Below are positions 5,722 through 46,086 of a stretch of 58,576 nt of DNA, one piece after another. The notes under the pieces are model-generated. The model did not search any database, was not told where the DNA came from, and saw only the letters and a list, made by a program, of their open reading frames with translations. Each line of letters starts with the position of its first letter. Positions within the stretch are counted from its first letter, which is position 1. A program made the translations under genes and the position numbers. This DNA comes from Kiloniellales bacterium (GTDB lineage Bacteria > Pseudomonadota > Alphaproteobacteria > Kiloniellales > JAKSBE01): positions 1-58,576 of the forward strand of contig JANQGU010000114.1 of the NCBI GenBank assembly GCA_028282935.1, in the 5' to 3' direction.

Positions 5722-6186
5722 TCAGGGTTTCAGGACCTCGATCACCTTGGTCATGGATGCCTTGGTCCGCTGCGCGTCCTTGACGTAGGCGTCCAGGATC
5801 TCCTTGGCAATCTCGCCCGTGGAATCGTCGGGCGCGTTCTTGAAGCCGAGGCGGGTGGTCTTGGAAAGCCCGATCATGCCGTCCAGCATGTCGCGCTCCA
5901 GCCGGGCTTCCTGAAGCACCGCCTGATCCTGGCCGCTGCTCAGCTTCTGTTGCCAGTCGGCCACCAGGTCCTGGAGCTCCTGGAGCCGGTCCTGCCAGGT
6001 GTCGAACCACTCCTTTACCGAGGCGGGGCCGGCCGCGGCCCCTGCATCGGCCGCCGCCTTGAGGCAGACGGCCAGGAACTCCCGTTCCATTTCCAACGCG
6101 GCGACGAACTCGTCCCGACTCGCGAAGGGCGCCTTGACCTGAGGTTCCACGTCGCTGGGTTCTGCAGTCACGGTCTCGCTGTTCAT
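5722..6186 (-). CDS. Hypothetical helical protein (154 aa)
   Basis: Start chosen at MNSETVT; acidic, helical composition with plausible codon use. Confidence 0.65.
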   Translation of the reverse strand: MNSETVTAEPSDVEPQVKAPFASRDEFVAALEMEREFLAVCLKAAADAGAAAGPASVKEWFDTWQDRLQELQDLVADWQQKLSSGQDQAVLQEARLERDMLDGMIGLSKTTRLGFKNAPDDSTGEIAKEILDAYVKDAQRTKASMTKVIEVLKP

Positions 6187-6424
6187 TTTCTTTACCCCCG
6201 TACCAGAAGGAAGACCTCGACGGAGACCATAACTTCCGAATCTCCAAAGTAAAATCGCAATTGTCTGCGCCAAGCCTTGTCTCCAGCCGATTGGGAAGAC
6301 TGTCTTCCGGTCGGTTTTCCTGGGAATCGCGGCCGAGCGGCGGCAAGTATTGCTGCCTTTCGACGACGAGGGGGCTCGCAGGAACCGGCGGAGGGACCTA
6401 GATAACCAGTGGGGAGGTCACGGG

Positions 6425-7354
6425 ATGACACGAGGTAAAGGCCGCTTCAGCCGTCGTTCCCTGCTCGTATCGCTGGCCGCGCTCGGGCTTGCCGCCGCCG
6501 GGTCGCGCCGCGTCCTTGCCGGCGCCGGGCCCCTGACCCGGGCGATCCCGAGCAGCGGCGAGGTCTTGCCGGTGATCGGGATGGGATCCTGGATCACCTT
6601 CGACGTCGGCGGGGACCAGGCCGCGCGCGCCCAGCGGGCCGAGGTGCTGCGCGCCTTCTTCGGCGCCGGCGGCGCGATGATCGACTCTTCTCCCATGTAC
6701 GGAACCTCCGAAGAGGTCATCGGCGATGCGCTGGCGCGCCTCGACGACAAGGCGGCCCTGTTCTCGGCGACCAAGGTCTGGACCCCCTCGGCCCGGCGGG
6801 GCCCCGAGCAGATGGAGGAGTCGCGCCGGCTCTGGGACGTAGAGCGCTTCGACCTGCTGCAGGTCCACAACCTGGTGGAGTGGGAGGGGCACCTGGAGAC
6901 CCTGAAGGCCTGGAAGACGGCGGGGCGGGTCCGCTACCTCGGCATCACCACCTCGCACGGCCGCCGCCACGCCGCGCTGGAGCGGCTGATGAAGACGGAG
7001 CCCCTCGACTTCGTGCAGTTCACCTACAACCTGGTCGACCGCGAGGCGGAGCGGCGCCTGCTGCCCCTGGCGGCCGAGCGCGGCCTGGCGGTGATCGTAA
7101 ACCGGCCGTTCCGGCGCGGCGCGCTCTTCGACGCCTTCGCCCGCAAGCCGCTGCCGGCCTGGGCCTCCGAGTTCGACTGCGGCAACTGGGCGCAGTTCTT
7201 CCTCAAGTTCGTGGTCTCGCACCCGGCGGTGACCTGCGCCATCCCGGCGACCTCGCGGGTCGACCACATGCGCGAGAACATGGGCGCCGCCTACGGCCGC
7301 CTGCCGGACCCCGAGCTGCGCCAGCGCATGCTCCGCTACGTCGAAGACCTGTGA
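6425..7354 (+). CDS. Aldo/keto reductase with Tat-like signal
   Basis: GGGGAGG SD; SRRSLL twin-arginine; IDSSPMYG, ATKVW, DLLQVHNL and IPATS motifs. Confidence 0.9.
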   Translation: MTRGKGRFSRRSLLVSLAALGLAAAGSRRVLAGAGPLTRAIPSSGEVLPVIGMGSWITFDVGGDQAARAQRAEVLRAFFGAGGAMIDSSPMYGTSEEVIGDALARLDDKAALFSATKVWTPSARRGPEQMEESRRLWDVERFDLLQVHNLVEWEGHLETLKAWKTAGRVRYLGITTSHGRRHAALERLMKTEPLDFVQFTYNLVDREAERRLLPLAAERGLAVIVNRPFRRGALFDAFARKPLPAWASEFDCGNWAQFFLKFVVSHPAVTCAIPATSRVDHMRENMGAAYGRLPDPELRQRMLRYVEDL

Positions 7355-8374: not shown

Positions 8375-8651
8375 GCCTGCCTCCTCTGCTTCGGGCGCCG
8401 GCGTCGTCCCGGCCTTGCCGGGGCCGATGATGTGGCGTGCCTGGCACCGAGGCAAGGACCGATGAGCCGGCCGGGCGCCGCCGCGAAGCGCAGCGACGCG
8501 GGTCCGGCAAGATCGGGAGGCGCGGCACGGCCACACCCGACAGCCTGCGGGCGGTCGGGTGCGGTGTCGAGCGTCAGATGACGGGGCGCTTGAGAGGCTC
8601 TCCAGGATCGGTGCCGCAGGGCGGTGGCCCCCCAAGGCCCTCACGCTGGCG

Positions 8652-9668
8652 TCACTTCCAGTTCTCCTCCACCCAGCCGCAAACCTCCCGCCAGGCCTCC
8701 GTCTTCATGTATTCGCTCGTCCGCTCTTCGAGTTCGGCGACGTGCTCGTAGTCGTCGAGCGGGTAGGGTGCGTCGAGCGACACGTTGCCCCGGCAGAATG
8801 CCTCGCCCAGCAGCTTCTCGGCCTCGGCGGTGGCGCTGGTGGCCGTCGCGTCGAACATCAGGCTGACCAGCGCCATGCTCGGCACGTGCTCGCCCCACTT
8901 GCTCGGCCAAAGCCAGTTCTTCGCGCCCCAGCTCAGCGGCTTGTACTTCTGGAAGAGGGCGGGCGGGACGCCCTGGGGGTCATGTCCGGTGCCCAGAGAC
9001 AGGACGCGGATGTCCGAAAGGCCGTCGGCGAGCCCGCCGCCGATCACCTCGCTGACCGCGGTCATGGTTGGGTTGTTGGCGAAGAGGCCGCCGTCGACGA
9101 AGTACCCCAGCTCGTCCGATACCTCGTGCGGTGGAAAGTAGGTCGGGGCCGCGGAGGTCGCGAGCGCCGCGTCGACCATGCTCACGTTTCGGAAGCGGTT
9201 GTCGGGGAGGCTGGAGAGGGTGCAGGATCGCCAGGACAGCGTGTAGCCGTCCCATAGCTGGGCGGCGTTCACGATGACGATCTTATCGGAGTCCCGGAGC
9301 CGGTCGTCTCCGAGAAGCTCCTCGGCCAGCTTCTTCAGGCCGTCGGCCTTGTACTGGCAGGACCAGATGCCCGGGCCGGCCAGCAGCTCTTCCTCTTCCT
9401 CGCTGGGCTCGACTTGATCCGCTGTCTCCGCGAACACGCCGTTCGGCGTGAAGATCTCCGCTCCCTTCGTCTTGTAGATTTCCACGATCTCGTCGATCGG
9501 CTTCTCTCGGGCGAGACCCAGGGCGATCAGCCCACCGGTGGAGGTGCCGGCGAAGCCCTTCGCCTTGCCGATGAAGCCCGGGAAGGTGTCGTGCAGGTTC
9601 TGGATCAGAAGGGCGGTGATCAGGCCGCGGATCCCGCCGCCGTCGCAGCACAAGATGTTATGGGTCAT
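8652..9668 (-). CDS. Patatin-like phospholipase
   Basis: DGGGIRG oxyanion loop, GTSTG nucleophile, ATSAAPTYF and DGG catalytic Asp; GGAG SD. Confidence 0.93.
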   Translation of the reverse strand: MTHNILCCDGGGIRGLITALLIQNLHDTFPGFIGKAKGFAGTSTGGLIALGLAREKPIDEIVEIYKTKGAEIFTPNGVFAETADQVEPSEEEEELLAGPGIWSCQYKADGLKKLAEELLGDDRLRDSDKIVIVNAAQLWDGYTLSWRSCTLSSLPDNRFRNVSMVDAALATSAAPTYFPPHEVSDELGYFVDGGLFANNPTMTAVSEVIGGGLADGLSDIRVLSLGTGHDPQGVPPALFQKYKPLSWGAKNWLWPSKWGEHVPSMALVSLMFDATATSATAEAEKLLGEAFCRGNVSLDAPYPLDDYEHVAELEERTSEYMKTEAWREVCGWVEENWK

Positions 9669-9737
9669 TTCTTTCTCCTCTGGAGCCTGATCGCTTCACA
9701 CCGGCTGGGCATGAAGGATGAGCCAGCCTCCTGTTCG

Positions 9738-9848
9738 TCAGGACAGGTCAGATTTCACGGCGCAGGCCGGCTCGACCTGCGCCGATCTTGATCCAGGCCA
9801 GCCGCGGTGGATCGGGCGCCGCGGCCGGCCAACCTCGATGTGTCGCAT
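9738..9848 (-). CDS. Possible small precursor-like peptide MRHIEVGRPRRPIHRGWPGSRSAQVEPACAVKSDLS (36 aa)
   Basis: Translated by hand. Contains RRPIHR and QVEPA, resembling neighbouring precursors, but the SD is poorly spaced. Confidence 0.3.
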   Translation of the reverse strand: MRHIEVGRPRRPIHRGWPGSRSAQVEPACAVKSDLS

Positions 9849-9886
9849 TCCTGGTTCGGTTCGTTCGCCCACCGGGACCGGCAAAC

Positions 9887-10141
9887 TCAGAGTCCCCAAA
9901 GCCGCCGCTGGCCGGAGTAGGGCTGAGAGAAGGTTTCCCGAGCGACCGGGTCCGCCAAGACCCTGACCGCTATGTTGGGCTTCACGTAGCGGGGCGGAGC
10001 GCCGAAGGCGAAGGGCTTGGGGTCGACGCCCGTCCCCTGCGGCGGCCTGCGCACGGGTTCGGCGCCCGATGGCGTTGCGTCCGAGGGCCTCGGCGGGGAG
10101 CCGGGCTGCGGGCCGTTCGTGTTTCCTGGTTGCTCTGGCAT
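9887..10141 (-). CDS. Small protein (84 aa), possibly PatC-like accessory
   Basis: Co-oriented in the protease locus. The C-terminus GQRRLWGL recalls the RRGRIWA end of PatC/TenC/TruC proteins. Confidence 0.5.
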   Translation of the reverse strand: MPEQPGNTNGPQPGSPPRPSDATPSGAEPVRRPPQGTGVDPKPFAFGAPPRYVKPNIAVRVLADPVARETFSQPYSGQRRLWGL

Positions 10142-10194
10142 GGTCCTGGGCCTTTCTTCTGAATGGCGGTTGTCAATGGCTCGCTTGCTGCGGG

Positions 10195-10386
10195 CTAGCC
10201 CGTCGAGCCTTCGGCGCGGCGCAGCAGCGCCTGCCGCACGATCGGGTTGCGCTCCGCGATCTCGCTCATAATCCGGTCGAAGCCGACCGGATTGCTGAGG
10301 AAGGGTTTGTTTCCGGCGGCGCTGGGCTCGACGCTGCCCGTGGCGGCCGCGTTCGGGCCGGCTCGGGGCGTGCCTGTAAGTTGCAT
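10195..10386 (-). CDS. Small peptide (63 aa) with GSVEPS motif
   Basis: AAGGAG SD before ATG at 10386; MQLTGTPRAGPNAAATGSVEPSAAGNKPFLSNPVGFDRIMSEIAERNPIVRQALLRRAEGSTG. Confidence 0.7.
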   Translation of the reverse strand: MQLTGTPRAGPNAAATGSVEPSAAGNKPFLSNPVGFDRIMSEIAERNPIVRQALLRRAEGSTG

Positions 10387-10466
10387 GACGACTCTCCTTG
10401 TGGTCCTCGCTTGGCGGCGGGCGCGGCGTCCGGAGGGGGCCGAACGCCGCTCCCTCACACCGGGTT

Positions 10467-10625
10467 TCAGCCGCTCAAGGCACCTTTCACGGCGCCGATG
10501 AGCGCAGGCACGGCGATGCCGGCCAGGGCGCCCAGGAACGCCGGCTGGACACTGCCGACGACGCCGACCTGAGCCGTTCTGGCAGGTCCACGTTCGACAC
10601 CTTGGCATTGGATCGGCTTACGCAT
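10467..10625 (-). CDS. Putative RiPP precursor peptide 2 (52 aa)
   Basis: AGGAGG SD; MRKPIQCQGVERGPARTAQVGVVGSVQPA-FLGALAGIAVPALIGAVKGALSG; paralog of 10712-10867. Confidence 0.85.
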   Translation of the reverse strand: MRKPIQCQGVERGPARTAQVGVVGSVQPAFLGALAGIAVPALIGAVKGALSG

Positions 10626-10711
10626 TGCAGACCTCCTGGTAGCTTGAGAGAAGGGCGGGCGGAGCGACCCGGAGCAGCGGAGGCTCCGCCCTTGCACTCA
10701 GCGAGAGAGGG

Positions 10712-10867
10712 TCAGCCGAGCGCACCCTGCAGAGCGCCGAGAGCGGCGTTCTTGAGGACCGGCATAATGCTGCCGAGGAACGCCGGGTTGGCACCGCCGG
10801 CTACGGCGATCTGCGCCGTCTTGGCCGGGCCGCGCTCGACGCCTTCGCACTGGATTGGCTTACGCAT
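10712..10867 (-). CDS. Putative RiPP precursor peptide 1 (51 aa; not in ORF track)
   Basis: AAGGAG SD; hand translation MRKPIQCEGVERGPAKTAQIAVAGGANPA-FLGSIMPVLKNAALGALQGALG, ending in TGA at 10712-10714. Confidence 0.85.
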   Translation of the reverse strand: MRKPIQCEGVERGPAKTAQIAVAGGANPAFLGSIMPVLKNAALGALQGALG

Positions 10868-10993
10868 TGCGAGTCTCCTTGCGGTTGGAGAGGGAAGGAT
10901 GGGCGGAACCGTCCCGATCTGCGGAAAGCCCGCCCGCTCAAGGCCGGCACCGGGGTGCCGGCTCCCCGCGGCTGCCGCCGCGTGGGTTCTGTC

Positions 10994-13399
10994 CTAGAAG
11001 ATCGACCAGTTGCGCAGCGGTCCGACGGTCACCGGGACCACGTCGCTGACGTCGACGGTGTACTGGAAGACGTGGCGCGCCGTGGTCAGCGTCTCCGTCG
11101 GATTGAAGAAGGTCCAGGTCGCGTCCCAGCAATCCGAATCGGGCCGGCAGATCGTGCTCCGGTCCACCGAGACGGTGTCCAGGAACATCCCGCTGTGGGC
11201 CATTTCCTCGAAGATCTTCTTGGTGTTGTAGGCGTTGAACGCCGAGTAGTTCATCGCCCGGTCCTGCGGCGAGACGCCGACGTTGCGGAACTGGTTGTAG
11301 ATCCTCTCCAGGAATTCCTTGAAGTTGTCCGGCGGATCCTCGCCGGCGATGTCGGTGATGTTCCAACCGAACATGCCCCGCCAGACCGGCAGCAGTTGCG
11401 GGACCACGGTCCCGTTCATCAGCCGGACTTCGCCGTCGACGTAACCGGCCTGGGACACGCGCTCGACCGGCGGCTTCTTCTTGTCCTTCTTGGACTTGTC
11501 CTTCGGGTCCGGGGCAATCTGGCGGACATCGTCGATGCCGCTGATCGGCTCGCTGCACTCCTGCTGCCACAGCAGGGTCGCCAGCTCCATGTACATCGGC
11601 AGGCCGAAGGAACTATGGGGCTTGATCGCATAGATCGGGGCCGTGTCGATGTTGACCGTCCAGATCAGCGCGTTGGAGTCGGGGAAGTTGATCAGCACCT
11701 TGGTCTTTGGGTCCTTGTACAGGAGGTACTTGATCATGATTTGCGGGTTCCACGGCGCGGCGTAGTCTCCGCTTGAATCGTAGTGATCGGGATCGACCCG
11801 TTTCCGCCACTCCGCGATCGCCTGCACGAAGTAGTCGAAGCGGGCCTCGCTCTCGAAGTCGTAGAACAGCCGTCCGATCACGAAGACCGAGGACTCGCCG
11901 ATCGCCTGCGAGGGCTGGATGCCGGCGCAGCCGCAGGACTGGTTCGGCGCGACCGCCGCCGGCATTGCCGGGCCCGGCATGCCGCTGGGCCAGCCCTCCG
12001 CCGCCTGCGGCGCCACGGGCTGAAGGACGGGTGCCTGGGGTGCCGTCGCCGGCAGGGCGAGGCCCTGGGGCATCACGGGCGGCGGGCCCTGCACCTGGGG
12101 CGCCGTCTGCGCCGGCACCATGGCGGTGGCCGGGGCGGGCAGGGCCGCGGTCGTGGCGGGCGCCGGGGCCTCGGCGGGGGATGCTGTGCCCGACGCGGGC
12201 GCGCTCGTCGCTTCTGCGGCGCCGGCGTCGGAGGGGGCGACCGGGGGGTGACCCGGGTCCGAGGGCAGGGCGGTCGAGGAGCCGACCCCGGACAGCGGAG
12301 CGCCGTCAGGGCCGAGGATCGACGCCGGAGCGTGACCAGGTGTCTGGTAATTCGCGGACATGGCGTTTGCCTCTCCTGTGAGCTGGTTGTGGGACAGGGA
12401 CGATTCGGACAGAGCGCCGCCTGCCGCGCTCGGCAGGGGCGACGTCGACGGCGTCGCAGTTGCGACGACACGCGGCGTTGGGTTTTCCCGTGGTTGCGAC
12501 GCGCCGCTCGGAGCGGTTCGCTGGAGCGCCGCCATCGCCGCCTCCACGTCGAGGACGCCGACGGGGCCGAGGTCCGGCGCGAACCGCGGATCGAGCGGCG
12601 CCGCCGTGTCGAGCAGCAGTCGGCGGATCGCAGGGGCGTCGGACTCGTCGCCGAGCTGGCGGCTCAGGCTGAGGAGCAGCGCGGCGACCGCGGTGACGAT
12701 GGGAGTCGCGAAGCTGGTGCCCGACCGCGGGCTGACGCTGCCACCGGGGCCGGCACCGGGAATGGCGTCGCCCGGCGCCAGGATGCCGTTTTCACGGTAG
12801 GCGTCGCCGTAGTTGCTGAACGCCATGGGCTTGCCGTCCCGGTCGCAGGCCCCGACGGCCAGGACGCTCGGCAGCGCGGCCGGCACATGGAGGCAACGGC
12901 AGCCGTCGTTTCCCGCCGCCGCGACGAGCAACGCGTCGCGCTGAACGCATTCTTGGACGGCCGCCTCCAGGAAGCGGTCGCCCTGTCCGGTCGGCGTGAA
13001 CTGGCCGCCGCTGATGTTGATGAGCGTCGCGCCGCTGTCGAGCGCGTGGTGAATGGCCCGCGCCAAGGTCGTCTGCGCGCAGCTCACCAGGTTCCCCTCG
13101 GAGTCTTCCCGGTAGACCGGGATGCAGAGGAGCGTGCAACGGGGCGCGATCCCGGCGACCGGCGACCCCGGCTGACCGGCAATGACGCTGGCGACATGGG
13201 TGCCGTGCGTCGAGCGGGTGAGATCGTACTGGCTCGGCTGGACGATCAGCGGCGCGCGGTCGCCGGGGGAGGTCCCGAGGAACGCGGGGTGGTTCGCATC
13301 CACGGGGCCGTCGATGACCGCGATCCGGATATCCGGCGAGCCGCCGGCGGTTTGCTCCATGAGCGCGCTCAGGCCCGGAATGTCGGTGACGGGAGTCAT
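10994..13399 (-). CDS. PatA/PatG-family (cyanobactin maturation-type) S8 subtilisin-like protease with C-terminal PatG-type DUF
   Basis: Triad motifs IAVIDGPVD, HGTHVAS and SGTSFATP; AAAGNDGCRCLHVPAA; Pro/Ala linker; C-terminal IGRLFYDF, WTVNIDTAPIYAIKP, RNVGVSPQDRAMNYSA, CRPDSDCWD and YTVDVSDVVPVTVG. Confidence 0.92.
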   Translation of the reverse strand: MTPVTDIPGLSALMEQTAGGSPDIRIAVIDGPVDANHPAFLGTSPGDRAPLIVQPSQYDLTRSTHGTHVASVIAGQPGSPVAGIAPRCTLLCIPVYREDSEGNLVSCAQTTLARAIHHALDSGATLINISGGQFTPTGQGDRFLEAAVQECVQRDALLVAAAGNDGCRCLHVPAALPSVLAVGACDRDGKPMAFSNYGDAYRENGILAPGDAIPGAGPGGSVSPRSGTSFATPIVTAVAALLLSLSRQLGDESDAPAIRRLLLDTAAPLDPRFAPDLGPVGVLDVEAAMAALQRTAPSGASQPRENPTPRVVATATPSTSPLPSAAGGALSESSLSHNQLTGEANAMSANYQTPGHAPASILGPDGAPLSGVGSSTALPSDPGHPPVAPSDAGAAEATSAPASGTASPAEAPAPATTAALPAPATAMVPAQTAPQVQGPPPVMPQGLALPATAPQAPVLQPVAPQAAEGWPSGMPGPAMPAAVAPNQSCGCAGIQPSQAIGESSVFVIGRLFYDFESEARFDYFVQAIAEWRKRVDPDHYDSSGDYAAPWNPQIMIKYLLYKDPKTKVLINFPDSNALIWTVNIDTAPIYAIKPHSSFGLPMYMELATLLWQQECSEPISGIDDVRQIAPDPKDKSKKDKKKPPVERVSQAGYVDGEVRLMNGTVVPQLLPVWRGMFGWNITDIAGEDPPDNFKEFLERIYNQFRNVGVSPQDRAMNYSAFNAYNTKKIFEEMAHSGMFLDTVSVDRSTICRPDSDCWDATWTFFNPTETLTTARHVFQYTVDVSDVVPVTVGPLRNWSIF

Positions 13400-13819
13400 C
13401 GGACCCGACCGTCCTGAGACAGTCGCGGCAGTTGAAACTGGTGCTTCAACCGAAAACGAACGGGCGGGACGGTGCCACTCAAGCTATCATACCTGAGGGT
13501 TTGTCGATGATATCTCGCGTCGAAAACGCTCAGATAGAGAGTCTTGGAGCGCAAGTAGTTCGTGCGCGCTTCCATATCTTCACTGCCCGCCAACATGGAA
13601 ATAACCTCTTCTTAAGTCACTTCTATTTTTAGATGTATGGATAATAAATACAACCTAAGCGTGTTGTGCTGGGCGCAAGCCGCCAGGCCTCGTCTTGCGC
13701 AGAGCGCAATCCGGCGGCGCGCCTGGGCGCAAGTCTGCGCGAATTCGGTAACGGCGAAGAGCCGCTTTCCGTCGCGGCGATCGGCGTTGCTCTTGGAAGA
13801 CCTTGGGAGAAAACTCGGA

Positions 13820-14176
13820 TCAGTCCGGCGCAATCGCCTCGATGGCACGATTGAAATGAAATACGAAACCCGACGGCAAAGACCTGGTAAGGCTTAAAAG
13901 CGTTCTTTCTTCGTGGTTCACCGTGAGTGAAATATGCTGATCCATATTGCCTCTGGCCAGAAGCAGCCAATCGGCCGAAATGTCGAGGGCTCTGCAGAGC
14001 TTGATCACGTTTTCGGTGGCGATCGGCGCGCCTCTTCTCCAGCGACTGATCGCGCTTTCGTTGACGCCGATTTCAATCGCGAGAGCGTACATTTTCTTGA
14101 TCTTGCGGATGCGGAGGGCCTCCTCCAGCCGTTGGCCCCGACCTGCATCCTGTTCGCTCGGTGAGGTTCCCCCCAT
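13820..14176 (-). CDS. XRE-family HTH transcriptional regulator
   Basis: LAIEIGVNESAISRWRRG...KLCRALDISADWLL; lies in an AT-richer segment. Confidence 0.85.
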   Translation of the reverse strand: MGGTSPSEQDAGRGQRLEEALRIRKIKKMYALAIEIGVNESAISRWRRGAPIATENVIKLCRALDISADWLLLARGNMDQHISLTVNHEERTLLSLTRSLPSGFVFHFNRAIEAIAPD

Positions 14177-14720
14177 GCTACCGCCTCTCACCAAACCGCT
14201 GCGACGTCCGCCCGAACTCCCGACAAGAAAAGACGTTCCCCAAGGCCCGCCGCCGCGGCTCCGGGTGCCTGGCCGGCCGCGTCCGTTTCTGCCGCCCGGA
14301 CGCGGCTTTTGCCGACAAGGCTCCTTCCGACGCCGCCATTCGGTCTCACGTTTCTATTATCCAAGTCGTAGTAGCAAAGACCTAAAGAAGAGCACGTTAT
14401 AGATATGAATTGCAATCTGAGGATGTATCTACCATTAACATTGTGAGAGGTTTTTCTTCTATAGATTGTAGTTCGACAGGCCTTTGTTGGGGGTCTTGCC
14501 TTCTTGGCCGGCCCCTTCGCGGCGAGAGGCACGCTCAAGGTGCGGAGCCGGATGCTAGCGCGGGCTCTGTTCTTAGCCGGAGGGACGGCGTCTTCCTCGA
14601 TCCTCGCGGCAAACCCGATTGGCGGCGAGCGACCTCGAAAGGGCGAGGGCCATCGCACAGCGCGCCAAAATCGGTTACCTCTTATGTATCGACCGAACGC
14701 GCGCCAAGGAACCGAGCCCG

Positions 14721-42154: not shown

Positions 42155-44157
42155 TGGCCAGCGACGACAAGCCAAAAGACGCCGCCGGTGCTGGGAATGC
42201 GGCGAAGGCCCGCAAATCGGCCCGCAAGCCGGCGGCGGCCCTGCCCATCAAACCCAAGACCAGCAGGCCCAAGCCCAGCAGGCCCAAGACCAGTAGGGCT
42301 GAGATCGGCAAACCGCGGGAGCGCCAGATGGTGGAAGCAAACCTGCAGGCGACGGCGCGCGTGGTCGCCGTCCAGGACGACCTCGTCGAGATCGAGGCCC
42401 TGGACGACCTCGAGGGCAAGCCCGCCGACCTGGTCAAGAACGAGGTGGTCTTCATCTGCCCCAGGAAGGTCAACGAGCTGGGCGAGCAGGAGAAGCTGAA
42501 GGCGGAGGTTCTGAGGGTTCGCGGGCGGACCGCCGATGCGCAGGTCTACGAGGACACCGCGGGCGTGGCCATTGGCGACGCGGTGGAGCAGAGCGGCGAG
42601 ATGCTTGCCGTCGAGTTGGGGCCCGGGCTCCTCGGCCAGGTCTACGACGGGCTGCAGAGCCCTCTGCACGATCTCGCCACGCGCTACGGCATCTTCCTGC
42701 CGCGCGGGGTGGCCACGGCGCCCCTGGACCCCAAGGCCAAATGGTCCTTCGTACCAAAGGTGAAGGTGGGCGCCACGGTCGCCGCCGGCGACACGATCGG
42801 GACCGTCCAGGAAGGCCGCTACACGCACAAGATCATGGTGCCTTTCGGCTGGCCGGGCGAATACAAGGTCTCCTGGATTCAGGAAGGGAACTTCACGGTC
42901 AGCGACACGGTCGCCCAGGTCGAGGACAAGGCGGGCCGCGCGCAGGACATCCGGCTGGCGCAGAAGTGGCCGGTGCGCCGCGCGGTCGACTCCAACCTGA
43001 CGCAGAGCCGGAGGTCGGAGCGGCTCTATCCCGACGAGCCGCTGGTGACGACCCAGCGCATCATCGACACCTTCTTCCCGGTGGCGCGGGGCGGGACGGC
43101 CTGCATTCCCGGGCCCTTTGGCGCCGGCAAGACGGTGCTGCAGAACATGATCTCGCGCTATTCCGCGGTCGACGTGGTCATCGTCGTGGCCTGCGGCGAG
43201 CGCGCCGGCGAGGTGGTGGAGACGATCAACGAGTTCCCCCAGATGAAGGACCCGCGCACGGGCGGCTCCCTGATGGACCGCACCATCATCGTCTGCAACA
43301 CCTCCTCGATGCCGGTGGCGGCCCGGGAAGCCTCGATCTACACCGGCCTGACGCTCGGCGAGTATTACCGGCAGATGGGCTTCGACGTCCTGATGATCGC
43401 CGACTCCACCTCCCGCTGGGCCCAGGCCATGCGCGAGACCTCGGGCCGGCTGGAGGAGATTCCCGGCGAGGAGGGCTTCCCGGCCTACCTCGAATCCTCG
43501 ATCAAGAGCGTCTACGAGCGCGCCGGCGTGATCAGGACCAACGACGCGTCGGTCGGCAGCCTGACCATGATCGGCACCGTGTCGCCGGCGGGCGGCAACT
43601 TCGACGAGCCGGTGACCCAGGCGACCCTGTCGACGGTCAAGGACTTCCTCGGCCTGTCCTACGATCGCGCCTACAAGCGCTTCTATCCGGCGGTCGACCC
43701 CCTGATCTCCTGGTCGCGCTACTCGGCGCAACTGGAGAGCTGGTTCGACAAGAACATCGAGGCCGGCTGGACCAAGCGGGTCTCGGAGATGCAGGACCTC
43801 CTGCACAAGGGCGAAGGCGTGTCGCAGATGATGCAGGTGACCGGGGAGGAGGGCATCACCACCGAGGACTTCGTGGTGCAGCAGAAGGCGCTCTTCCTCG
43901 ACATGGTCTACCTGCAGCAGGACGCCTTCGATTCGGTCGACGCCTCGGCATCCCTGGAACGCCAGAAGCTGACCTTCAACAAGGTCTACGACCTGGTGAC
44001 GCGCAGCTACGGCTTCGCCGACAAGGAGGCGGTCCGGGATTACTTCACCAAGCTCACAGGCTTGTTCAAGAACTTCAACTATGCCGCGGAGGACTCGCCG
44101 GACTACGACGGCCTCTTGAAGCAGATCGACGACCTCGCCGCCACGGCGCCCCACTAG
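42154..44157 (+). CDS. ntpA: V/A-type ATPase subunit A
   Basis: [38 protein letters not shown] and [10 protein letters not shown]; basic N-terminal extension. Confidence 0.96.
42253..42297 (+). repeat. 3 x 15-bp tandem repeat encoding [15 protein letters not shown]
   Basis: cccaagaccagcagg / cccaagcccagcagg / cccaagaccagtagg. Confidence 0.85.
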
Positions 44158-44286
44158 CGCAGCTCGCGCTCACGTGAACGCGGATGAGCTGCTCCCTCGC
44201 ACTCCTGTATGTCTGCAGATCTTAGTGCAAGAGTTGTGCGTTAGGAGGAAGAACAGGCTGCCGCCGCAGGCCTCTCTCTTACCCGT

Positions 44287-45543
44287 CTACTTGGCTGCAA
44301 TCACCGCCTTGGTCTCGTTTCGCTCCCAGTCCGTGATGTAGTCGCGGACCAATGGCACCGCATCCTGGTGTTTGGCCATCTGGATCTGAAACACCATGAG
44401 GCCGCTTCGGCGGAAGGCGAGTTCGCACCCTGTGAGATAGAAGTCCCACATGCGGCAGAAACGCTCATCATAGAGTGCTGCGATCTTTGCACGATTCTTG
44501 GCGAAGCGCTGCCGCCACGCGCGGAGTGTTTCAGCATAGTGGAGCCGCAAGATTTCAATGTCCGTGATCCACAGCTCCTGCCCTTCGATCACCGGCAACA
44601 CTTCGGACAAAGCGGGTGGGTAGGATCCCGGAAAAATGTACTTCCGAATCCAGGGGTTGGTGGCAGCCGGACCGTCCATTCGGCCAATGGAATGGAGAAG
44701 CGCCACGCCGTCTTCGGTCAATAGCTCCTTTACCTTCGCAAAGAAATCCCTGTAGTGGTTCACGCCGACGTGCTCGAACATGCCGACGGAGACGATCCGG
44801 TCGAACCGGCCTTTCAGCTCGCGATAGTCGCAGAGCTCGAAACGCACGCGATCTGCAAGCCCTTCTGCTTTGGCGCGTGCCCGGCTGACCTCAAGCTGTC
44901 GTTCCGATAGCGTGATCCCCAGAACCTCATCGGCCCCCGCCTTGGCGAGACCAAGTGCGAGCCCGCCCCAACCTGAGCCGATGTCAAGCACCCGGACACC
45001 TGGCTTCAAAAGCAGCTTGGCAGCGAGATGGCGCTTCTTCGCTTGCTGCGCCTCTTCGAGGCCATCAGTCTTCTTGGAGAAATAGGCACAAGAATACTGA
45101 CGATCCTCGTCGAGGAACAAATCGTACAGCTCTTCGGAAAGATCATAGTGGTGGGCCACTCGAGACTTGGCCAGCCAAGCTGGATTCCACTGGTACAGAC
45201 CTCGCACTAGCCGTTTGAAAATATAAGCTGTTTGGCCGGATGGTTGGCGGTACCAATCCGCCTCGGCTCGGGTCGCAATATCGAGAAGATCGTAGAGGCT
45301 GCCGCGTTCTATCGTCAGGTCGCCATTCGTGTAGGCCTCACCGAGAACCAGCCGTGCATTGACGATCAATCGGTGGTGGAGCGAGCGCTTGTGAAGCCTG
45401 ACTCTCACCCTCGGCCCATCTCCATTGTCTATTGCATATTGACGGCCCTGCGTGTCAATGATCTCTAAGTTTCCCCACTTAACGAGGCGGCTTGCTAATT
45501 TTGCGAGTAGCATAAGATCACTAAACTCCGAAATAGGAATCAT
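44287..45543 (-). CDS. cfa: Cyclopropane-fatty-acyl-phospholipid synthase family methyltransferase
   Basis: HHYDLS, QYSCAYF, VLDIGSGWGG, SVGMFEHVG, YIFPG and HYAETL; visibly lower GC than neighbours. Confidence 0.92.
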   Translation of the reverse strand: MIPISEFSDLMLLAKLASRLVKWGNLEIIDTQGRQYAIDNGDGPRVRVRLHKRSLHHRLIVNARLVLGEAYTNGDLTIERGSLYDLLDIATRAEADWYRQPSGQTAYIFKRLVRGLYQWNPAWLAKSRVAHHYDLSEELYDLFLDEDRQYSCAYFSKKTDGLEEAQQAKKRHLAAKLLLKPGVRVLDIGSGWGGLALGLAKAGADEVLGITLSERQLEVSRARAKAEGLADRVRFELCDYRELKGRFDRIVSVGMFEHVGVNHYRDFFAKVKELLTEDGVALLHSIGRMDGPAATNPWIRKYIFPGSYPPALSEVLPVIEGQELWITDIEILRLHYAETLRAWRQRFAKNRAKIAALYDERFCRMWDFYLTGCELAFRRSGLMVFQIQMAKHQDAVPLVRDYITDWERNETKAVIAAK

Positions 45544-46086
45544 TCAAATGTCGGTTTACGGATGAGAAAACTATGCCCTTAATGTTGAAAGTCACGGCGG
45601 ATGGAAGTTTCCTCTGGCACTGCAGGCCATGGTAAAAATGGATGCTTTTCAGCAAGTCATATATGAGGCGACTCTTCGGTGCCTTTGCCTTGTCGTCGAT
45701 GAATCAGGGGCCTTGGGCTCATCATCCTGGCCAGCGGCCAAACGCTGCGCATAACAGACCGTGGGGATGTTTGAACCTGGTCCGATCAGCAAAGAGCTGC
45801 CGAATTCAGTTGCTTGATGGGAGGCGCCCACACACGAATTGCGATCGCCCGAAAAGGGGGAAGTCCTAAAAGCGCTGAATCTTCACTATGGCCTGGTTCG
45901 TTCTTGACCTACGTCCTTAGTGCAGACAACAACGCGTGCGATGGCAGCCATCACCGAAGCAACCCCTTACTCCTTTCCAGATTGCTGTTCCTTGTAGCCG
46001 GTCCGCCAGCAGATGCTGGACGGGGCAACTACAAGTAGGTGTCGCCACTAGGTGATTCGGTTCACTTCGTCTGATTTTTTTTTTAG

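Follow-up and report, generated by a model that had tools for sequence, protein, structure and literature searches.

A PatA-only, cyanobactin-like peptide cassette and a linked CapV-like patatin in a genomic island of an alphaproteobacterium

In this work we have analyzed contig JANQGU010000114.1 of the Kiloniellales bacterium assembly GCA_028282935.1 (58,576 nucleotides (nt); "the window" below means this whole stretch) and describe in it a 6.2 kb island which encodes a single protease of the PatA type, two paralogous precursor peptides, two further small proteins named ORF3 and ORF4, an XRE-type regulator, and a CapV-like patatin phospholipase (Table 1). On balance we consider it probable that this is a leader-peptide system which derives from the cyanobactin pathways, retains PatA as its only maturation protease, and would release linear, probably unmodified and membrane-seeking peptides, with the patatin as an accessory. 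An original prediction, made from the sequence alone, had read the minus strand as an XRE regulator followed by an S8 protease, short open reading frames (ORFs) and a patatin, an arrangement borne out by the coordinates and by Pfam matches. It had proposed a PatA-only cyanobactin-like peptide system outside the cyanobacteria, lacking PatG, PatD, PatF and a follower sequence, and this proposal is supported by our data.

The system was also predicted to be undescribed, and we found no description of it in the literature: neither a PatA-only peptide cassette in Alphaproteobacteria nor a patatin-subtilase system was retrieved, with the proviso that supplements, which lay outside the search, could list lone PatA genes. 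A lone cyanobactin peptidase is mentioned in passing for Roseomonas oryzae in an excerpt of one paper (PMC8776678), and in the excerpt of another PatA-like proteases are treated only within azole-forming clusters (PMC4603692). If our reading is correct, the leader-and-protease logic of the cyanobactins operates beyond the cyanobacteria in a stripped-down form which releases plain linear peptides. There would then be a compact family of hydrophobic peptides, diversified in nature and counting about 50 representatives, each with a known processing enzyme, which could easily be tested as membrane-active agents.

The protease is of the PatA type

The protease matched all three Pfam families named for it in the original prediction, Peptidase_S8 (3.8e-34), PatG_D (1.6e-07) and PatG_C (7.9e-35), and is laid out as an S8 domain at approximately residues 20-290, a Pro/Ala-rich linker, and PatG_D plus PatG_C at residues 505-800. 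The GTSFATP motif cited for a single PatA-like protease is present at residues 227-233. Against TIGR03895, the NCBIfam family of PatA/PatG cyanobactin maturation proteases, the protein scored 502 bits where the cut-off is 421 bits. Comparison with solved structures gave 276 bits for the S8 domain with 4h6w and 247 bits with 4h6v and 3zxx, all of which are N-terminal cyanobactin proteases, and only 151 bits with the PatG macrocyclase 4aks; the C-terminus matched the structure of the PatG domain of unknown function (DUF), 4uvq, with 110 bits. As the N-terminal proteases outscore the macrocyclase (276 versus 151 bits), the enzyme is assigned to the PatA type. Conservation of the catalytic residues D30, H65 and S229 reaches 90% or more across 31 aligned sequences.

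Relatives of the protease were collected by a scan of one genome per species, in which 569 stretches were confirmed over the TIGR03895 cut-off and 80 loci were kept. The alphaproteobacterial loci (n = 21 of the 80) comprise 15 from Bradyrhizobium, one from Nisaea, two from Xanthobacteraceae, Pseudolabrys included, and three from other Alphaproteobacteria. A FastTree phylogeny was built with 70 proteases, a motif filter having dropped 11 of the 80 loci (L044, L045, L048, L053, L062, L078, L086, L090, L092, L093, and L094). The 22 alpha-clade rows, that of the window included, formed one branch and 42 classical cyanobacterial rows a separate one, each with a support of 99. The nearest locus, L015, has a protease 74% identical over 630 tree columns. 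When the host genome was surveyed together with 40 relatives from its genus and order (G011 included), the host alone of these 41 genomes had a protease over the cut-off. In a plasmid collection matches to the protease were limited to the S8 domain. A predicted complex of the S8 domain, the DUF and a peptide, run without controls, gave scores of 0.00, 0.61, and 0.07. Two database proteins show other uses of these domains: in P0072 (930 aa) protein-kinase domains are joined to S8 plus PatG_D/PatG_C, and in P0100 (446 aa), which has no S8 domain, an AhpC/TSA domain lies between PatG_D and PatG_C.

Two precursor peptides with a conserved leader and a variable tail

The two precursor genes form a direct repeat of 121 nt whose copies are 76% identical and 242 nt apart. 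In peptide 1 the leader comprises residues 1-29 and ends in NPA, and in peptide 2 it ends in QPA; with the cut predicted after residue 29 in both, the tails would be residues 30-51 and 30-52, respectively. The tail of peptide 1 has a grand average of hydropathy (GRAVY) of 1.12, a net charge of +1 and one GxxxG motif, and that of peptide 2 a GRAVY of 1.65, the same net charge of +1 and three GxxxG motifs. Both peptides stop at the end of the tail, with neither a follower nor a C-terminal recognition sequence.

A profile built from 16 family members was searched against 1.84 billion proteins and retrieved 50 representatives at E <= 0.001, of which 24 were at E <= 1e-10; within the host genome the family was found only as the two copies in the window. 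Statistics were drawn from 49 distinct sequences, many of them near-copies from Bradyrhizobium, so that the rows are not independent. The junction between leader and tail sits 26 residues past the Pro of a PIQ motif, and pairwise identity averages 0.61 over the leader and 0.23 over the tail. The median tail length is 22 residues, and the median GRAVY is 0.84 for tails versus -0.42 for leaders; Cys occurs in three of the 49 tails and Pro in 44.

The placement of the cut is a prediction from sequence. PatA-like enzymes cleave after G(L/V)E(A/P)S, according to an excerpt of PMC10885120, and the junction reads G-x-x-[NQ]-P-A in the window and G-S-V-N-P-Q in most relatives. Three database proteins, P0295, P0287 and P0289, combine GVEPS, LRPS and VKPS junctions with a generic LPxQxPPVxR leader and Bradyrhizobium-like tails; it is because these bridge both leader types that the putative cleavage site of the window peptides has been placed after residue 29. 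The same N-terminal leader motif opens the classical precursors (TIGR03678, TIGR04446) and PatB (TIGR04220) in cyanobacterial loci.

An AlphaFold2 model of peptide 1 (helices at 14-24 and 28-50) had a mean predicted local distance difference test score (pLDDT) of 61 and is too uncertain to use. In sequencing run X2 one contig joins position 10544 to 10807, and the 262 nt skipped leave only one peptide gene, which is recombined; co-occurring strains therefore differ in how many peptide genes they carry.

A cassette conserved in order across Alphaproteobacteria

The protease gene, one or two peptides of the family, ORF3 and ORF4 follow one another in the same order in 21 of 21 alpha-clade loci, from both soil and marine Alphaproteobacteria, every one of which has a single protease, with neither PatD nor a second protease within about 8 kb. 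The short ORFs are more than chance occurrences, since peptide, ORF3 and ORF4 recur in fixed order in all 21. Among the four to five short ORFs originally predicted, the four named here recur and each has a visible purine-rich ribosome-binding site; the fifth lies in a non-conserved spacer and is not counted as a gene because this spacer is replaced by other sequence in a diverged relative, in which window positions 9678-9872 are swapped for 114 other letters (contig from run X10). Of the two kinds of neighbor which the original prediction had suggested looking for beside homologous proteases, the small ORFs recur in these 21 loci and the patatin, discussed below, does not.

ORF3 has the motif ERNPI[IV] in matching position in 20 of the 21 loci and the variant QRNPIL in L049. 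In ORF4 the N-terminus is variable and rich in Pro and Ala, and the C-terminal module is conserved (PPQ..G ... YSGQxRxW); a homologue is present in all 21 loci, and 15 columns are invariant across nine sequences. ORF3 and ORF4 are thus genuine, conserved genes. Neither matched any Pfam, NCBIfam or PADLOC model, an ESM Atlas look-up of ORF4 led only to unnamed clusters (top score 0.87) and gave no lead, and its AlphaFold2 model was of low confidence (mean pLDDT 59). Homology to PatB and PatC was considered and is not supported, as hhalign gave a probability below 1% and there was no NCBIfam match, while PatB and PatC controls do match TIGR04220 and TIGR04447. Like PatB and PatC, ORF3 and ORF4 are small partners of unknown function, which could now be addressed in a simple genetic system.

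In Bradyrhizobium the cassette occupies one conserved chromosomal context across many species, and there it could play into soil or root competition. In L018 and other Bradyrhizobium loci among those listed, ORF4 is followed (at approximately 11529-12215) by a predicted membrane protein of 228 aa with no Pfam match, a linkage which says little because these loci are close kin. DNA nearly identical to that of the window was found in runs labelled coral metagenome (X1-X3), of which X1 may be the source, and parts of it in marine and marine-sediment runs; no RNA run was among those listed.

Other PatA-only loci were identified in Saprospiraceae, Eilatimonas, Fulvimarina, Terriglobia, Iodobacter, Duganella, Solirubrobacterales, Thermoanaerobaculia, and Cylindrospermum. 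As in the window, a lone PatA-type protease is followed by short ORFs (one to eight) with the leader motif, here LP-x-Q-x-x-P-V-x-R, and a junction of the form G-[VI]-x-P-[SQ]; unlike those of the window, the cores, which may be Cys-rich or hydrophobic, are mostly Cys-rich, and ORF3 and ORF4 are missing. No description of these cassettes was found in the literature, and none of the peptides from five of them (L077, L086, L044, L048, and L045), nor that of the Bradyrhizobium alpha-clade locus L018, matched any NCBIfam family. Across the diverse single-protease loci the only recurrent neighbors were regulators (XRE in three lineages, LuxR-type in four) and patatin (two loci).

Some individual loci deserve mention. 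In a metagenome-assembled genome of Terriglobia (L062:10014-11860) a single PatA-type protease precedes eight short ORFs, all bearing the leader motif and GVEPS/GVEPQ-type junctions, whose cores are highly dissimilar to one another, some Cys-rich and some hydrophobic. The Cylindrospermum locus encodes at L077:12796-13413 a 205-aa protein ending in a leader-like motif (MKLPPQAKPVKR) and then a Cys-rich stretch, which looks as though a precursor had been joined to a larger protein, or as though an overlapping frame ran ahead of it. In the marine alphaproteobacterial PatA-only loci L048 and L053 the peptides are followed by a small ORF with a P-x-Q-A-x-P-x-P-R start and a VGR-x-W motif, which recalls PatB in that PatB also opens with the leader motif.

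The patatin and its linkage to the cassette

The patatin scored 175.6 bits (1.4e-51) against the CBASS_lipase model NF041079, below the equivalog cut-off of 200 bits, and matched the PADLOC phospholipase effector at 4.4e-56; its PF01734 match (Table 1) compares with a cut-off of 27.7 bits. GGGxRG, Ser43 and Asp192-Gly are invariant across 16 aligned patatins, and the oxyanion loop, GxSxG and DG[GA] motifs are intact. A loop with the sequence PQG[IV]PP was considered as a site for the protease and rejected, being conserved across the whole patatin family whether linked to the cassette or not.

In the sub-lineage of the window the patatin travels with the cassette, of which it is not a core member. 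A 2906-nt contig from run X10, which belongs to another study, spans everything from the patatin through ORF4, ORF3 and the peptide genes to the 3' end of the protease gene at approximately 82-95% identity, as counted from the listed differences. Homologues of protease and patatin were further found on contigs of equal size (23076, 14079, and 8964), the patatins on them being 93, 76, and 65% identical, respectively; as a check of the method, the same pairing by size recovered the 58576 of the window itself. An independent adjacency was seen in Cylindrospermum (L077), where the protease, a distant branch in the FastTree phylogeny, and two Cys-rich leader peptides are followed by a patatin of 36% identity (tblastn, 375 aligned positions). 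Among 400 other genomes sampled from the phylum, none had a patatin of this type at E <= 1e-50, and because it is so rare two independent adjacencies are unlikely to have arisen by chance, although a general clustering of conflict genes could explain both without direct cooperation. A metagenome scan with the patatin gave one weak match only, and the plasmid collection held one unannotated homologue from Burkholderia. The repeated pairing of the cassette with a CapV-like phospholipase is a testable lead to an effector pair of peptide and lipase.

Proposed mechanism and alternatives

In the mechanism that we propose, the S8 protease would act in the cytoplasm, recognize the 29-residue leader of both paralogous precursors, and cut after the junction equivalent to the PatA site. 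The predicted products are peptides of 22 and 23 residues, hydrophobic, rich in Gly and Ala and usually with one internal Pro, which would be linear and probably unmodified because there is no follower, second protease or conserved modifying enzyme. Once released they would most likely insert into membranes. ORF3 and ORF4 would be obligatory small accessory proteins, the adjacent regulator (XRE in the window) would control the unit, and the CapV-like patatin would be an accessory co-inherited in the sub-lineage, most likely a second membrane-directed effector.

A number of observations weigh against this interpretation. At E <= 0.1 the window peptides had no match among the precursor families of NCBIfam and Pfam, TIGR03678, TIGR04446 and NF042906 included, while control precursors from cyanobacterial loci do match TIGR03678/TIGR04446, and hhalign of the peptides with PatB gave just an E of 0.007 over 12 columns; in the absence of a precursor-family match, leader homology with the cyanobactin precursors rests on the short motif, its position and the bridging sequences. 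A role in modification or immunity is conceivable for ORF3 and ORF4, as factors which cannot be recognized by sequence. No exporter is encoded within the island and none recurs beside the related single-protease cassettes, which leaves an extracellular role for the peptides with no visible route. As to the patatin, none of the 21 alpha-clade loci has it, the nearest (L015) included; its gene is served by a separate ribosome-binding site, which a non-conserved spacer of 218 nt precedes; a homologue in Burkholderia cenocepacia, 50.7% identical, stands alone among metabolic genes; and the three co-occurrences on contigs of 23076, 14079 and 8964 rest solely on equal contig sizes.

The first three of these points on the patatin also favor the most serious alternative, namely that the cassette works as we propose while the patatin is a passenger in a variable spot, functionally unconnected to it. 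Further in line with this, the cassette-linked patatins have no sequence feature to distinguish them from unlinked ones, and the host genome has a second CapV-like patatin away from any cassette (contig C365, L112:4849-5889 and 6053-7138; NF041079 179.8 bits), head to head with another patatin-domain gene. This latter pair adjoins an ORF which by eye resembles an enoyl-CoA hydratase, and there is no cyclase nearby. Against a passenger stand the persistence of the linkage while the patatin diverges to 65-93% identity, the limits of the island, which ends just beyond the patatin and the XRE gene, and the separate adjacency in L077 of a patatin type so rare elsewhere. We therefore regard a passenger patatin as possible and somewhat doubtful. 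The patatin had been predicted as part of the system: it does not define the system, and what stands of that claim is its linkage in the sub-lineage and its single independent recurrence in L077.

A different role is envisaged if the unit is an intracellular cell-death or anti-phage module gated by the protease, in which leader removal would be triggered, the peptides would permeabilize the cell's own inner membrane, the patatin would degrade its lipids, and the infected cell would abort. Such a role would fit the lack of an evident signal peptide on the protease and patatin, which had been predicted and holds as judged by eye, and on the peptides, judged likewise; it would also fit the lack of a conserved exporter, the closeness of the patatin to phospholipase effectors of the cyclic-oligonucleotide-based anti-phage signaling system (CBASS), the XRE-type regulator at the head of the unit, and the absence of the 6.2 kb island from two same-genus genomes and from all 40 relatives searched. 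The export argument is weak, however, in that classical cyanobactin clusters likewise have cytoplasmic proteases and no exporters. The one conserved chromosomal context in many Bradyrhizobium species is more in keeping with a stable trait than with a mobile defense gene, and a conserved leader with a hypervariable tail is the pattern of diversifying secreted peptides. Moreover, viral contigs yielded no relative of the protease, no known defense-system model fits (PADLOC yields a generic subtilase and a phospholipase effector only), and no CBASS cyclase was found in the host genome, where SMODS CD-NTase gave no match, nor any in the island. It should be noted that this assembly consists of 460 contigs and is 81% complete, which bounds this and every other genome-wide absence reported here. 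We consider a cell-death module unlikely.

Much the same low probability is given to a self-contained variant of it, a membrane-attack module in which the freed peptides, as a helix, hinge and helix, would breach the inner membrane and either switch on the CapV-like phospholipase or give it access to lipid without any cyclic-nucleotide signal, so that a cell-death or anti-phage system would have been assembled from cyanobactin parts.

The host genome was also searched for the partners of an ordinary cyanobactin cluster. It has one match over the TIGR03895 cut-off, four others covering the S8 domain only, and two YcaO genes of 411 and 432 aa, each followed by TfuA and located on other contigs, which are thioamidation-type pairs and not PatD. 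The predicted absence from the locus of a YcaO gene, a second protease, a follower and an adjacent exporter holds, and PatD or PatG partners elsewhere in the genome, which would have spoken for a split cluster, were not found. The predicted absence of a prenyltransferase agrees with a search for LynF/TruF (TIGR04445) that found none in the host genome, a result which weighs little as the same search was silent in every control genome. It is very improbable that the peptides are modified by enzymes encoded elsewhere, such as the two YcaO-TfuA pairs, in an ordinary split cluster for a peptide made by the ribosome and modified after translation, with the protease merely stripping the leader: the two YcaO genes and the lack of an assigned function for ORF3 and ORF4 would allow it, but the YcaO proteins are short and TfuA-paired, one has its own repeat-bearing candidate precursor upstream, the tails are nearly free of Cys, and no second PatA/PatG protease was found in the genome nor any PatD or second protease near the cassette in the 21 related loci. 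The candidate precursor is a 159-aa ORF at L007:643-1122 (G000 contig C104) in which an 11-residue unit with AGRMAIEA at its end is repeated about a dozen times, possibly a multi-core precursor for thioamidation.

Comparison with known systems

With the cyanobactin pathways (pat, tru) the cassette of the window shares a PatA-like protease of S8 plus PatG_D/PatG_C architecture over the TIGR03895 cut-off, and small conserved cluster proteins of unknown function. It further shares a conserved leader with an N-terminal leader motif, a hypervariable core and a junction like the PatA site given in an excerpt of PMC10885120. The differences are that PatG, the C-terminal recognition sequence, PatD and PatF are missing, that the tails are hydrophobic, nearly Cys-free and about 22 residues long, that the hosts are alphaproteobacterial, and that the protease belongs to a separate clade; precursors, ORF3 and ORF4 matched none of TIGR03678, TIGR04446, TIGR04220 and TIGR04447. 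Applying the definition of a cyanobactin gene cluster given in an excerpt of PMC4663559, the A-type protease is present, and the G-type protease, PatB/PatC and the optional PatD/PatF are not. As for an E-type precursor, the peptides have the leader motif and a junction resembling RSII and lack the C-terminal recognition sequence.

Linear cyanobactin clusters keep both proteases and add prenyl groups, methyl groups and thiazole to very short cores, whereas the window encodes a single protease and no modifying enzyme, and its cores are long and hydrophobic. Linear peptides derived from cyanobactin-type precursors, as proposed here, do exist in the form of the aeruginosamides and viridisamide (excerpt of PMC4663559).

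The patatin of the window shares the patatin fold and catalytic motifs with the CapV of CBASS, and the absence of a CD-NTase from the island and from the 81% complete assembly, together with the NF041079 score, speaks against CBASS itself. A likeness in outline exists to the class IIb two-peptide bacteriocins and leader-dependent microcins, which are small, unmodified, helical GxxxG peptides, leader-bearing and sometimes paired; in the window there is no double-glycine leader (the leaders end in NPA and QPA), no C39-peptidase ATP-binding cassette exporter either in the island or recurring nearby, and no membrane immunity protein, and the protease is of another family. Gasdermin-protease systems serve as a mechanistic model only, as there is no Pfam match in the island beyond the ORFs named and the candidate pore formers are the peptides of 22-23 residues.

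Layout and boundaries of the island

The features are collected in Table 1. The window was matched at DNA level by the same-genus genome G001 up to position 8461 and again from 14664, and by G002 up to 8456 and again from 14828; two unrelated genes occupy the site in G001 and G002. As these genomes match both flanks and lack what lies between, the island corresponds exactly to the stretch from the XRE gene through the patatin. An AcrB-type pump 2 kb past the XRE gene is part of the conserved flank and lies outside the island. No convincing repeats were found at the island ends and no tRNA genes in the window, and a scan for promoters and terminators gave nothing above shuffled expectation.

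Table 1. Features of the island and the evidence on which each is based.
Feature	Position in window	Strand	Basis
XRE/Cro-type helix-turn-helix (HTH) regulator, 124 aa	13820-14194 (TTG start 14194, ATG at 14176)	minus	Pfam HTH_3 1.2e-07, HTH_26
PatA-type S8 protease, 801 aa	10994-13399	minus	Pfam, NCBIfam, solved structures
Precursor peptide 1, 51 aa	10712-10867	minus	sequence, family profile, leader/tail statistics
Precursor peptide 2, 52 aa	10467-10625	minus	tandem paralogue of peptide 1; family profile
ORF3, small conserved protein, 63 aa	10195-10386	minus	position and motif ERNPI[IV] kept in relatives
ORF4, small conserved protein, 84 aa	9887-10141	minus	C-terminal module kept in relatives
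Fifth short ORF, probably no gene	9738-9899	minus	spacer replaced in diverged contig; no homologue seen in related loci
Patatin-like phospholipase, CapV-like, 338 aa	8652-9668	minus	PF01734 1.1e-24, 88 bits
Island missing from two same-genus genomes	8462-14663		DNA comparison with G001, G002

A homologue of the XRE regulator is likewise found upstream of the protease gene in L015 (62% identity) and in L049 (41%), and in other lineages its position is taken by a LuxR-type response regulator. Elsewhere in the window, positions 44000-46000 have a G+C content of 0.53-0.60 compared with approximately 0.68 in the remainder; this region, with a 418-aa ORF at 44287-45543, may be another foreign insert.

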